The notes under the pieces: model-generated
Databases searched by the model: none
Seen by the model: the letters and a program-made list of their open reading frames with translations, nothing else
Told to the model about the DNA's origin: nothing
In this document: piece after piece, positions 39,492-44,216 of the stretch
How the letters are laid out: every line of letters begins with the position of its first letter
How positions within the stretch are numbered: the stretch's first letter is position 1
From: Candidatus Thorarchaeota archaeon
GTDB lineage: Archaea; Asgardarchaeota; Thorarchaeia; Thorarchaeales; Thorarchaeaceae
Direction of reading: 5' to 3'
NCBI GenBank assembly: GCA_011364905.1
Contig: RDNZ01000001.1
Location: forward strand, 1-64,000
Length of the DNA stretch: 64,000 bases
Position numbers and translations under genes: made by a program

Positions 39492-39699
39492 CCAATTAAC
39501 TCCTACAAACAAGTTGGAGCACAAGCAACCTAAAAGCTCTTCGTCTGCGCCAATTTTGCTCTTGGGAAGAAAAAGGCAGGCGGAGTTCTGTGCGAGTAAT
39601 GCGGTGTATTGCCGCGCCATCTTTGCGTTTATCTCTGCGAAACTTTTTCAAACTGCATCCTTCTCTTTTCTTCTTTTGGTTCTCTCTGCGTCAACGTTT

Positions 39700-41754
39700 T
39701 CATGATTTCTTCTTTCTGATAGCTATAACTACAAGTGCTAGAGCAACCACTGCTCCAAATCCTACTGCTAACACAAGTAAGCCTAATTCATAGGGGTTAT
39801 CCTGTCCTGATGTCCCAACTAATCTAAGCATAACGGTATCAGAACTAGTGTGTCCATTCAGATCTGAAACAACAAGAGTCACATTATGAGAAGGACCGTT
39901 TATCACATTGATTGCAAATGTGAGGAAACCATTCCTCCATGTGCCTTGTCGGATTAACTCACCATTATGATACAACCAGTATTGGGCAGGGAAAACATCC
40001 CAAACACTCCATGTTACATTGACAACAGTGACACTGATGTCAAAATAGACATTATCTGGGTGACTAATATTTGGACTATACACATCTGCATCTGGCCACC
40101 TGTCTTGACTTCCTGCACTTCCAGGAATTGTGTAGGGATGATAACCTGATTCATAGTCATAATCACTCCAAAGGTTGCCTGTGTTCATACCATTATCCCA
40201 TTGATTCAGGAAGCCATTATCGATGGCATTTCCACCATGATTCCAACCGAAGACATTGAAGCATATTGTGTTGTTGGTTGAGCCAGCATAGATCTCCAAC
40301 CCCACACCAAGATTGTAAGCGATATTATTACTAAGGATCTCAGAATTATTCCCAAGATACAAGATTCCCCAATCATCCCCATCGATTATTTCATTATGGA
40401 CAATTCTTGAATTCCATATAGGTGCAGCCAGAATTCCCATGGAGTTAGAAGGCTGGACATAATCATCAGATGTATCCACTATTCGATTATCTACGATTAG
40501 CAATCTTGACCCAGAGAGACGAATTCCACAATAGCAAGACGTGATGGTATTCTCAAGAACTAGGCAATCGTAGCCTGACACCTCGATACCGGTGAAAGTT
40601 ACACCTGAAAGATGGTTTCTCTGTACAACTGAATCATAACAAGATGCCAAGTAGATCAATTTTGAGCCGCCGCTAGCATCCCCAAAGACAGTGTTATTCT
40701 GAACCGTGCAATCATGTGAGTAGTAGAGGGCAATCCCAAATCCATGCCCCACATGAACTATGCATCTTGATATCTGAGTGTTGTTTGAATAGTGAACAAT
40801 AATGCCTTGAGCAGTACCTTGGGATACAAGATCTTCTACACTACAGAAATCGGAATAAAGAATCTGGACACCATACGAAACATTCTCTATGGTTCCATTC
40901 TGGACAATGATGTTCTCGCACTGCATCAGGATTACCTGAGCGTAATCATCTGCATTGACTGTCATATTAATGGCATCCTCAAGGTAGAGAATAGGTTTGC
41001 CATTTGCACTATTTCCAGTAATAGTATAATCAAAGGTTGGTTCGTAAAGTATGTGGACATTAAGCGTAATTCCACCGTTGACAAAGATATTATCTATTAC
41101 AGTCATATTAGGGCTCCAACCGACTTGTAGGACCGCTGTATCAAAGAAGCAGTTTTTCACAATCGAGTCTTCGCAATAACTCAAGTCGACACGCATTGGA
41201 AAAGTGGTTGCTTGACTCTCAAAGAAATCGCATCCTGTAATATTGACGTCGTTCGAATGTTGGATTGAAGCTGCTGCCCAATCCATAACCATGATGTTGA
41301 AACCACTAATTGTGAGATGATCACTATATTCCACTTTGATGCCGCGATATTCACTGTATATCTCACATTCTTCGAGTGTCCCATTATCAGCATGAAACAG
41401 ATCTATGGTATAATTCAATGCAGTAGGTTGGAGAAAACAATCTCTAATGATAAAATGAACATCAACATATCTGATTTCGATCGGAACTTGTGGACTCGTA
41501 ATGTTCAAACCTTCGATGGTGAATGGGTTGGATTCCGTTCCGTTACCCGGCCAACCTTGATCAATAAAGTCTTGATTCCCACTGATGAAGATTGGTGCAT
41601 GCGGCGTATACGATGTTTGGAAAATACGGGTTGAGTCCGACATTTTGGTTGGCTCCTTAACTCCATCAAGCACGACTGAATTACTTGCTGTGAGAATGAG
41701 AAGTGCAATCATGAGAGATATCACAGAAGAATTCAACATCTTATGCAGCTTCAA
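39700..41754 (-). CDS. Surface right-handed beta-helix (NosD/CASH-type) protein with C-terminal TM anchor
   Basis: HAPIFISGN...GNGTESNPFTIEG, parallel beta-helix repeats, GNLWSDY, Ig-like domain, TM helix followed by RKKKS. Confidence 0.9.
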   Translation of the reverse strand: MKLHKMLNSSVISLMIALLILTASNSVVLDGVKEPTKMSDSTRIFQTSYTPHAPIFISGNQDFIDQGWPGNGTESNPFTIEGLNITSPQVPIEIRYVDVHFIIRDCFLQPTALNYTIDLFHADNGTLEECEIYSEYRGIKVEYSDHLTISGFNIMVMDWAAASIQHSNDVNITGCDFFESQATTFPMRVDLSYCEDSIVKNCFFDTAVLQVGWSPNMTVIDNIFVNGGITLNVHILYEPTFDYTITGNSANGKPILYLEDAINMTVNADDYAQVILMQCENIIVQNGTIENVSYGVQILYSDFCSVEDLVSQGTAQGIIVHYSNNTQISRCIVHVGHGFGIALYYSHDCTVQNNTVFGDASGGSKLIYLASCYDSVVQRNHLSGVTFTGIEVSGYDCLVLENTITSCYCGIRLSGSRLLIVDNRIVDTSDDYVQPSNSMGILAAPIWNSRIVHNEIIDGDDWGILYLGNNSEILSNNIAYNLGVGLEIYAGSTNNTICFNVFGWNHGGNAIDNGFLNQWDNGMNTGNLWSDYDYESGYHPYTIPGSAGSQDRWPDADVYSPNISHPDNVYFDISVTVVNVTWSVWDVFPAQYWLYHNGELIRQGTWRNGFLTFAINVINGPSHNVTLVVSDLNGHTSSDTVMLRLVGTSGQDNPYELGLLVLAVGFGAVVALALVVIAIRKKKS

Positions 41755-41870
41755 TGTTCACCCCACCAAGATAGTCCGATGAAGAAATGCTCTTCTTAAA
41801 TCTCTTGTTTGAATGCTTTTGCTAAAACTGAAAACACAGGTGCAGCCTGATGTAATCCACCACTGAATGT

Positions 41871-42112
41871 AAAATGAAGAGGTGGGCACGGCTCTGTGCA
41901 AGCAACGCGGTGCATTGCCGCGCCACCACCTAATGTTTTGTGCGCCACGTTCCGAAGAACCCATTTTGAGGTTTATCGCAAGATACACTCCGCACGCCAA
42001 AGAGTGTAATCGGCTCGCACATTGAATATGCCGTGCCCTTGTTTGGATATGTCTTGGGAGCATTCGCAGTTATACCTTGTGGTCGGAGAAACTCCCAAAG
42101 AACTCTGGGTCG
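41871..42112 (-). ncRNA. Putative structured non-coding RNA of unknown family (~240 nt)
   Basis: Nested helices forming a four-way junction, a C(UUCG)G tetraloop, several G.U pairs that work only on the minus strand, an upstream TATA-like motif and a 3' U-rich tract; boundaries approximate. Confidence 0.65.
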
Positions 42113-42124
42113 TGCTGGTAGTGA

Positions 42125-42317
42125 TAGTCCACATTAAGATACCACAATCTCGCATAAAAAGACTATGCGCATGTCTGACTCATTTCGATTCGAGTCGTGT
42201 GCATCTCACCCTCAGCATCTTACGTTTTTGTGCCCGCAATCGCAACCTTTAATCGGTGTACAACATCCTGATTCTCTAAGGCCAAAGTAGAGAGAGAAAG
42301 ACCTTAATGTGGGACTA
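42125..42317. promoter_or_regulatory. Divergent promoter region bounded by an inverted CTTAATGTGG(G)ACTA motif pair
   Basis: Minus strand ATCTTAATGTGGACTA (42140-42125) and plus strand ACCTTAATGTGGGACTA (42301-42317). Confidence 0.55.
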
Positions 42318-42395: not shown

Positions 42396-44216
42396 ATGCG
42401 TGTGTATTTAGACGCGAACTTCTTCATATCGGGTTTCTCGGACCGCCCAAAAGATGTAGCAGTTGTAAAGAAAGCCGCAGACGAAGCGGAGATGGAACTT
42501 TGGATCACAAGACAAGTGTTTCAGGAGCTCAGGTGGTATCTAAGAAGAGAAGCTGAGAAGATTGTGCAGATAGATGAAACTCTCTCGAAAGATATCAAAG
42601 CTTTCATGGAAAGCATAAATCGTCCAGAGTCATCGCTGCCACAGCCAAATGATATGTCTCTTGTCTTAGGCGCTATGCGTAGCAAAGGTTCAAAGATTGT
42701 GACTAGTGACCTGAAGTTGTTGAATACAATTCAGGATCTGAATGTTGACGTTGAAGGCATTGTTGGATCCGCGTTTGTACTGGAACTTATGGAGTCAGTT
42801 TCGGATGAAAAGCTAAAGGAGGATCTCTCAGCAATCAGAGACCGCATATATTCGGAGGAAGTAAGATACAGCATCTCTCGCCAGGAAACATATGATCCTG
42901 TGACTAGAATCCGTATCATTGAGGACCATGCCCTTCGAGTGCTCAGGACTGTAAAACGGCCAGCTGAGGGTTTCGACAGAAAGCTCTCAAAGGGACAGCC
43001 TCTGTTTGTTCTCGACTTCCTAGAAGACATCAAGGCTGATGTCCCCAATATGTTCGAGGACTTTAGAGAAGGAAAGTATGATACTCTAGCTCATGAGATT
43101 GAGGCAGTGCAGAATGAGATTGAGAGGCTGCTCATTGTATCAACACTGACGGAAGACAGTGAAACACATGGTCAACTAGTCAGGCATGCTTCAGACCTCA
43201 CACTGTTCCTATATTACTTGGAGATGATTTGCCATCTGTATCGAGGGACCCGCCAGGGTATTGAAGATGCCTTAACAATCAGCGACGAAGCATTTAGGCT
43301 TTTGATGTTTGCAGAAGTAAGCAATGATGAGCTTAAGGCATCAGTCTTCTTTGTACGAATTGTTCTTGCTCTCATACGAGAAGATTACGAAGAGATTGAT
43401 TACTATTACAGCCTCTATGATAGCATGATCAACCGCATTGGGTTAACCGATATGCTAGAAACCTCTGAAGGGCTCTATATTACGATGCAGATCCTTAGGA
43501 AGTTTATGGGTGGTTTCAGTCTGACAAAGAACAAACTGCAATACCCGGAAGTAACCATGTCCATGCTCAATGACCTGACAAAATACGCAATCCAGTTCGA
43601 CGACCACGATAATGCATGGCAGTTAGCAGTGACAGCGTATAAAATTGGAGTAGCATACAACAAAGAGGACGGCGCATTGGGATCGTTCCTCATGCTATAC
43701 AAGGTTTCATCGTCATCACATGATAGATTCAAACCAGCTCTTGAAAAAATAGCAGAGCATGCACTGAAGGCATTTGTCAAGAAGGGCTGGGATACAACAC
43801 AAATCACCCCAATTCTGAACGAGGTTCAAGGACAGCTCCCGCAAGTCAGCGGGATGACCACAGATGGACCAGTGGACCAAAAAGAGTTGAACGAAGAACT
43901 CACTGGCTGGATGGATGTTCTGTCACTTGAAACAATTGATGGCGTCGAAATGCTTGTTGTCAGAAATGACAAACTACAAGCACGTATTGCCATTGCAGTT
44001 GGGAACCGTCAGGAACTTTGTGCACTGAAAACAGGACACAAGGTTGCGCTAACAAATGGAAATTTCGAAGTGTCAAATGCGAAACCTGAAGTAGTCAAAC
44101 AATACTCTATAGTATTGACAATCACACCCAGCGAAAGCGCAGAGATTTCCTATGAAGGCGAGTATGGATTCAGCTATCTCAAAGTAACTGAGGAAACTGC
44201 CAAATTAAAGACATAA
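42396..44216 (+). CDS. Large PIN-domain protein (PIN + helical solenoid + beta-rich C-terminal domain)
   Basis: VYLDAN (D6), FQEL (E44), PNDMSL (D86), IVTSD (D105): PIN acidic residues intact. Confidence 0.85.
   Translation: MRVYLDANFFISGFSDRPKDVAVVKKAADEAEMELWITRQVFQELRWYLRREAEKIVQIDETLSKDIKAFMESINRPESSLPQPNDMSLVLGAMRSKGSKIVTSDLKLLNTIQDLNVDVEGIVGSAFVLELMESVSDEKLKEDLSAIRDRIYSEEVRYSISRQETYDPVTRIRIIEDHALRVLRTVKRPAEGFDRKLSKGQPLFVLDFLEDIKADVPNMFEDFREGKYDTLAHEIEAVQNEIERLLIVSTLTEDSETHGQLVRHASDLTLFLYYLEMICHLYRGTRQGIEDALTISDEAFRLLMFAEVSNDELKASVFFVRIVLALIREDYEEIDYYYSLYDSMINRIGLTDMLETSEGLYITMQILRKFMGGFSLTKNKLQYPEVTMSMLNDLTKYAIQFDDHDNAWQLAVTAYKIGVAYNKEDGALGSFLMLYKVSSSSHDRFKPALEKIAEHALKAFVKKGWDTTQITPILNEVQGQLPQVSGMTTDGPVDQKELNEELTGWMDVLSLETIDGVEMLVVRNDKLQARIAIAVGNRQELCALKTGHKVALTNGNFEVSNAKPEVVKQYSIVLTITPSESAEISYEGEYGFSYLKVTEETAKLKT

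Follow-up and report, generated by a model that had tools for sequence, protein, structure and literature searches.

What occupies the 640-nt gap between two diverging genes on contig RDNZ01000001.1 of Candidatus Thorarchaeota, where a gene for a NosD/beta-helix surface protein and one for a protein with an N-terminal PIN domain run away from each other? A preliminary description of this locus, which lies within the 64,000-nt stretch of DNA that we analysed as a whole (the window), placed in the gap an orphan structured RNA of about 240 nt and assigned it to an undescribed class of Asgard non-coding RNA (ncRNA). To our knowledge, few conserved structured archaeal RNAs exist in the record beyond rRNA, tRNA, RNase P, SRP and guide RNAs, and we found none described in the literature for the Asgard archaea, the closest known relatives of eukaryotes.

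The gap contains a structured RNA, although its conserved unit is shorter than first proposed, at about 160-170 nt. On the minus strand, the segment 41880-42042 has a minimum free energy (MFE) of -67.2 kcal/mol with a z-score of -3.57, and none of 200 shuffled sequences folded as well, so that the comparison with shuffles suggested in the preliminary description favours a genuine fold. For the full 242-nt span, the minus strand has a z-score of -2.30, and the plus strand one of only -0.62. The minus-strand polarity originally assigned to the RNA is also borne out: the consensus fold contains five G-U pairs, the covariance model described below matches the minus strand, and a promoter-like motif points the same way.

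Conservation and covariation in relatives, which the preliminary description had named as a further check, support the fold. A covariance model was trained on 27 homologues, and an alignment of 67 members was fitted to it, a procedure that favours structure; in this alignment, 97.2% of the cells form standard pairs, compared with 80.4% in shuffles, and double changes affecting both sides occur in 32 of the 43 pairs. When the 3' partners are slid by 1-3 columns, pairing falls to 33-44% and the covariation score drops from 0.586 to 0.10 or less. An independent MAFFT/RNAalifold run recovered identical helices, with 25 of 44 pairs compensated. This unusually strong covariation makes the fold trustworthy. 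The window sequence, when constrained to the consensus fold, is 3.9 kcal/mol less stable than in its MFE structure. A mutual-information scan of all column pairs revealed nothing beyond the nested helices, except for possible one-pair extensions of P1 and P4, and no reading frame is conserved across the RNA homologues. The helices and the other features discussed below are listed in Table 1.

Table 1. Positions of the RNA gene, its structural elements and its neighbours in the window.
Feature	Position	Strand	Remarks
RNA core	42038-41880	minus	Conserved unit of about 160-170 nt
P1	42038-42030 with 41892-41884	minus	9-bp end helix; double changes in 6/9 pairs; three outermost G-C pairs invariant
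Asymmetric internal loop	between P1 and P2	minus	5-nt bulge on the 3' side, between the P2 and P1 strands
P2	42018-42013 with 41903-41898	minus	5/5 modelled pairs covary; 5' strand extendable to 42021 in the window
P3 hairpin	42011-41982	minus	Double changes in 8/10 pairs
P4 hairpin	41978-41953	minus	2-bp base, internal loop, 4-bp tip; 5/6 pairs covary
P5	41951-41942 with 41913-41904	minus	9-bp stem; 8/9 pairs covary
Tail	41883-41871	minus	Unpaired ACC (41883-41881), then a pyrimidine/U-rich tract
BRE/TATA-like promoter motif	42084-42069	minus	Ends 30 nt before the first G of P1
Imperfect inverted repeat (5' hairpin of the preliminary description)	42099-42053	minus	Brackets the promoter motif; this genus only
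606-aa protein gene	42396-44216	plus	N-terminal PIN domain; one flank of the gap
NosD/beta-helix surface protein gene	39700-41754	minus	Other flank of the gap
Decayed direct copy of the last ~47 nt of the RNA	39620-39574	minus	Beyond the NosD-like gene; 88% identity over 33 nt
p190	38057-37548	minus	MacB-type cluster
FtsX/MacB permease	37375-34574	minus	MacB-type cluster
ABC ATPase	34573-33674	minus	MacB-type cluster

In the consensus fold, P1 and P2 are placed in series, or stacked, and lead to a four-way junction of P2, P3, P4 and P5, whose linkers of 1, 3, 1 and 0 nt are nearly invariant. Several elements drawn in the preliminary description hold on the 67 homologues, with many compensatory changes, namely P1, the core of P2, the first arm, which corresponds to the P3 hairpin, and the four-way junction itself. 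The other two arms had to be redrawn. Instead of forming an ACCU/AGGU arm, the ACCU at 41972-41969 pairs locally with GGGU (41962-41959), and a GUUC-UUCG-GAAC hairpin is not kept in other genera. Similarly, the proposed arm of GGCGCGG with CCGCGUU is replaced by a helix in which CCGCGUU (41910-41904) covaries with AACGUGG (41951-41945; consensus AACGYGR), while GGCGCGG is invariant. A pseudoknot suggested between GUGCG and CGCAC breaks down in several genera, since its 3' partner varies against a constant P3 loop and the GC of CGCAC covaries instead with a partner close by.

The loops show their own patterns of conservation. The G-rich, 9-nt loop of P3 (42000-41992) is invariant in 27/27 sequences and almost so in 67, the loop of P4 consists of 6 nt and is A-rich (41968-41963), and the 28-nt loop of P5 (41941-41914) is G-rich and near-invariant. 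In genomes G066 (locus L101), G012 (L111) and G011 (L116), the P5 loop carries insertions of one or two extra hairpins, 25-65 nt in size, between its GG tracts.

Does this fold belong to a known RNA? Searching Rfam 15 returned no family at gathering score anywhere in the whole window, and its E-value mode gave only chance matches (E of at least 0.45), none of them on the RNA core; the same was true of two divergent members. The Rfam comparison that the preliminary description had proposed thus produced no confident match to any family. ARAGORN detected no tRNA or tmRNA in the window, as opposed to 23 tRNAs elsewhere in the genome, and a full-text search of the literature found no description of such an RNA. 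Specific candidates were considered individually. A divergent archaeal RNase P RNA (RF00373) was rejected, given that an RNase P RNA of about 340 nt is present in 79/87 genomes, at other loci among the matches listed, and that none lies in the window. The same reasoning applies to a divergent archaeal SRP RNA (RF01857), as an SRP RNA of about 310 nt occurs in 78/87 genomes, again at other loci among the matches listed. For 5S rRNA (RF00001), a 120-nt copy was located elsewhere in 5/5 relatives tested, and its three-way junction differs from the four-way junction found here. A C/D box sRNA was dismissed since UGAUGA and CUGA are both missing from the window core and the sole C/D match is on the other strand and at chance level (sR14, E = 8), and an H/ACA sRNA was dismissed since no ACA is found three nt from the 3' end. 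The RNA is therefore a new family without a catalogued relative, confined to Thorarchaeota.

This confinement emerges from its distribution. A BLAST search with the region found it in 63/87 genomes of the class, almost always as one copy each, and the covariance model extended this to one full-length copy in 68/87 genomes, including 21/24 of the high-quality genomes and 16/17 genera; the word "orphan" used for it earlier is consequently not appropriate. In a sample of 151 genomes covering the phylum, the covariance model detected the RNA in 24/26 genomes of its family and in none of the 125 genomes from the other 26 Asgard families sampled. All carriers belong to one family, labelled Candidatus Thorarchaeota, so that the claim of an undescribed Asgard class stands as regards novelty and is narrowed as regards spread. 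Across 185,579 species, an exact 19-mer from the most conserved loop was found in 42 places, 39 of them in archaeal metagenome-assembled genomes (MAGs) mostly labelled Candidatus Thorarchaeota, and all nine of the archaeal sites that were re-checked match the covariance model in full. The three bacterial sites have no covariance-model match and were attributed to chance. Viral carriers of the conserved loop were likewise rejected: at least 118 matches to a 15-mer in IMG/VR were all assigned to chance, with no model match among the 80 loci listed and searched. Within the class, the RNA was not found in the fairly complete genomes G010, G026, G022 and G032, which means that it is not indispensable. 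The closed genome G010, which belongs to the same genus as G011 and G012, is without any copy of the RNA.

We then consider where the gene begins and ends. At more than 40 loci from many genera, the BRE/TATA-like motif is found 22-39 nt ahead of the first G of P1, and the 5' ends of the tRNA genes of the same genome are preceded, at a distance of about 27-35 nt, by TATA-like boxes that resemble it. The usual archaeal spacing between TATA box and start site places the start of transcription at about 42044-42048. From this spacing we infer a 5' leader that would measure 0-16 nt, depending on the genus. The 5' hairpin of the preliminary description exists, and compensatory changes within its genus (g1) support it. 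Since the promoter-like motif found throughout the family sits in its loop, the hairpin probably lies outside the conserved RNA. Different repeats surround the motif in genus g9, and none do in g16, g2, g15 and g13. The hairpin is thus probably either a DNA operator or a genus-specific, transcribed feature, and not part of the family core. Farther upstream, the divergent promoter region at 42100-42200, and its equivalent in the genus, forms a genus-conserved block made of a T-rich TATA-like box, a long AT-rich palindrome and a second TATA-like box; the PIN-domain gene probably has its promoter and operator in this block. The element CTTAAT, initially regarded as the TATA-like signal of the RNA, forms a second TATA-like block besides the family-wide motif; it is kept within the genus only and could drive either the RNA or the diverging gene.

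The 3' end is equally distinctive. After P1, the unpaired ACC is invariant, and of 66 members, 52 have a U directly behind it and 14 a C, with no purine at this position. In the first 12 nt of the tail, 83% of the bases are pyrimidines against a background of 50%, and a run of at least four T is present in the tail of 58% of members, compared with 5% in the background. The pyrimidine/U-rich tract that follows ACC is a probable terminator. Together with the lack of an Rfam match, the strong covariation and the promoter-like motif, this tail upholds the original proposal of an undescribed, stand-alone ncRNA.

Both ends of the RNA recall those of tRNA genes. The P1 end helix starts with GGGC and closes with GCCC, resembling a tRNA acceptor stem, and since the tRNA genes of the genome finish with GCCC-A-CCA and then a T-rich tract, the RNA terminus copies a tRNA end minus its final A. 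It is not a plain tRNA copy, given that the base after ACC is never A even though the tRNA genes here encode CCA. The likeness to tRNA genes comprises the TATA-like box about 30 nt upstream, the G-C-rich end helix that starts with GGGC, the unpaired A followed by CC, the T-rich tail, a four-helix junction and an insert-flanking copy of the 3' end of the gene. In other respects the RNA is unlike tRNA: it is about 160 nt long; it has a 9-bp end helix and a second helix before the junction; its junction linkers of 1, 3, 1 and 0 nt contrast with those of 2, 1, 4-5 and 0 nt in tRNA; it lacks D-loop, T-loop and 7-nt anticodon-loop signatures; ARAGORN finds nothing; and its gene never encodes the last base of CCA. 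At the level of the RNA molecule, what is shared with tRNA is limited to the acceptor-like helix and the A-CC tail. No other RNA in the genome convincingly combines a 9-bp helix with ACC. As in the precursors of 4.5S RNA and tmRNA, which are bacterial non-tRNA substrates of RNase P, the paired ends and the 3' NCC tail could direct 5' maturation. Unlike tmRNA and 4.5S RNA, with which it has no sequence or structural homology, the RNA is without a T-arm, a G3-U70 pair and a tag reading frame.

Taken together, our findings point to a stand-alone gene for a stable, structured, trans-acting ncRNA of Thorarchaeota, a reading to which we assign a probability of about 0.6. The RNA would be transcribed from its own promoter and would terminate at the U-rich tract. 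Its tRNA-like terminus may make the short 5' leader a substrate of RNase P and may protect or mark, and thereby stabilise, the 3' end. The four-way junction would gather the three conserved loops into one binding surface for a protein or ligand partner, and the RNA would act in trans within a ribonucleoprotein (RNP). The transcript ends, the processing and the action in trans are thus put forward from features of the sequence.

In another possible role, the RNA would sense or bind the 3' ends of tRNAs, with the invariant UGGUGG of the P5 loop pairing with NCCA ends or with the ACC tail of the RNA itself. Pairing with tRNA NCCA ends is a known property of the T-box bulge and of loop L15 of RNase P, and the P5 loop is complementary to the CC-A-CCA ends of the Ala, Val, Ile and Met tRNA genes of this genome as well as to the RNA's own tail. 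Both partners are invariant, which fits such pairing and at the same time leaves no covariation to support it; moreover, the U or C after ACC does not covary with the loop, G012 is without a full GGUGG at that place, and Rfam gives no T-box match. We therefore consider this role very unlikely.

The stand-alone reading must also be weighed against the genes that surround the RNA. Clustering of the open reading frames (ORFs) around the 67 loci identified a conserved downstream pair on the same strand, formed by p190 and then an FtsX/MacB permease. The first is a secreted, membrane-anchored protein of about 170-190 aa with no Pfam family and many N-glycosylation sequons, and the second is a duplicated FtsX/MacB protein (MacB_PCD) of about 930 aa in relatives and 933 aa in the window. 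Along the minus strand of the window, the order is RNA, NosD-like gene, 255-aa ORF, 196-aa ORF, p190, permease and ABC ATPase. The permease is located downstream on the strand of the RNA in 49 of the 51 genomes that have both on one contig, at distances that range from 8 nt to 8 kb. The upstream neighbour varies between the PIN-domain protein and an FG-GAP protein; the downstream neighbourhood is kept across 16 genera. This link to the MacB-type cluster represents the strongest functional hint, and the stand-alone reading leaves it unexplained.

Such a constant, same-strand association is what would be expected of a cis-acting leader or riboswitch, in which the mRNA of the MacB-type cluster would begin with the RNA and a ligand would control read-through at the U-rich tract. 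The conservation is aptamer-like, with covarying stems and an invariant junction and loops, and the absence of a run of four T from the tail of 42% of members makes read-through plausible. Genomes G026 and G022 are without both RNA and permease, but this joint absence carries little weight because it is expected for neighbours in fragmented genome bins. The yybP-ykoY Mn2+ and czcD NiCo riboswitch aptamers offer the closest parallel for this interpretation, with their covarying helices, conserved junction and distal loops, and fixed place upstream of a transporter cluster; they differ from the RNA in that the latter has no Rfam match, tolerates insertions, possesses a tRNA-like terminus and is followed by genes with their own promoter-like motif. 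This motif is TATA-like, is known as a sequence motif only, and is conserved in many genera between the RNA end and the start codon of p190 or the permease, 20-35 nt before that codon, together with an upstream palindrome that may be an operator. In addition, whole genes amounting to 0.5-8 kb have been inserted between the RNA and the cluster while the RNA remains undecayed, with a full model score. The two are uncoupled in G034 and G011, where the transporter is 8-10 kb away on the opposite strand and the RNA keeps its full score, and in G010 and G032 the permease is present but the 7 kb upstream of it contain no copy of the RNA. On balance, a leader or riboswitch appears quite unlikely.

The same neighbourhood, stable across 16 genera despite the changing upstream neighbour, could instead reflect a trans-acting RNA whose function is tied to the transporter, either in a membrane-associated RNP comparable to OLE-OapA or as a regulator of the cluster mRNA. 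Nonetheless, no RNA-binding domain was found in p190 or the permease, both of them extracellular or membrane proteins, a search for antisense targets of the three conserved loops found no complementary sequence elsewhere in the genome, and the synteny could be explained by shared ancestry of gene order alone. Hence, we view this tie as unlikely. Other large orphan ncRNAs offer a comparison: like OLE, ROOL, GOLLD and raiA, the RNA is a lineage-restricted, strongly covarying ncRNA, and like OLE it is encoded beside membrane-protein genes, but it is much smaller, archaeal and without homology to any of them.

On the other side of the gap, the PIN-domain protein was considered as a partner of the RNA and rejected, as its position next to the RNA is largely limited to one genus, it lacks a solved relative and it belongs to no named family. 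Its only domain assignment is a weak N-terminal PIN match, and it shows 82-92% identity within the genus. Its nearest Atlas clusters are unnamed archaeal proteins of about 630 aa, mostly from Thermoplasmatota.

The downstream side of the RNA gene offers a different kind of evidence. In the window, the 3' end of the RNA and its decayed copy bracket a 2.26-kb single-gene insert that carries the NosD-like gene (39574-41926). Likewise, in G045 (L057, contig C16), a 25-nt copy of the 3' end brackets a 1.39-kb insert with a gene for a 439-aa leucine-rich-repeat protein, and in G016 (L107, C227), a 48-nt copy with 98% identity brackets a 0.49-kb insert encoding a HicA/HicB-like toxin-antitoxin pair. 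Comparable copies occur in G048 and G050. The larger inserts behind the RNA (G018, G076 and G047) contain ordinary cellular genes, and no integrase was seen in the inserts examined. Attachment sites with an insert pattern of this kind are known for tRNA and tmRNA genes, and in the window, G045 and G016 there is an intact RNA gene on one side of the insert and a direct copy of its 3' end on the other. Judged by these copies, the RNA gene is a previously unnoticed insertion site for gene cassettes. Under the stand-alone reading, the conserved 3' end would work as a recombination site, as in tRNA genes, and this would explain the adjoining cassettes.

The cassettes also raise the question of whether the locus is a DNA-level element, that is, a recombination or cassette-boundary site, and not an RNA at all. 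Copies of the 3' end do bracket cassettes in at least three genomes, as such an element would require, but the duplication is limited to the 3' 25-48 nt, whereas covariation extends over the full 160 nt. Only one strand preserves the G-U pairs, the opposite strand folds no better than shuffles, and the promoter and terminator signals run in the same direction as the fold. A purely DNA-level element is accordingly extremely unlikely.

The annotated ATG of the 255-aa ORF, at 39620, falls inside the decayed copy. Relatives of this ORF align only from about residue 40, and therefore its real start is probably further downstream. A small ORF that begins at a GUG in the P5 loop was rejected as a coding sequence, as no frame is conserved and its likeness to the start of the 255-aa ORF reflects the duplicated RNA end.

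A bolder proposal would merge several of these ideas into a new class of archaeal RNP RNA that borrowed its layout and terminus from tRNA, is matured by RNase P and 3'-end enzymes, uses its G-rich loops to capture NCCA ends or to form a G-quadruplex-like pocket, and works with the adjacent MacB-type exporter as the Asgard counterpart of OLE; we regard this combination as decidedly unlikely. With the stand-alone ncRNA as the preferred reading, the tRNA-like ends point to how the RNA is made, and identification of its partner could reveal a lineage-specific RNP or a new coupling between an RNA and a membrane transporter. Annotation of Thorarchaeota genomes and mining of metatranscriptomes can already draw on the covariance model.

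Some minor observations concern the other RNA genes of these genomes. Genome G000, which is 81% complete, contains 23 tRNA genes that encode the 3' CCA, a tRNA-Sec gene is present on contig C16, and neither an RNase P RNA nor an SRP RNA was found in it. The rRNA search of G058 yielded a 23S rRNA fragment only, with no 16S match. Two genomes of the genus, G052 and G040, have two RNase P RNA matches each; for instance, those at G052:C7:28603-31574 are 2.3 kb apart, and the second has the lower score.
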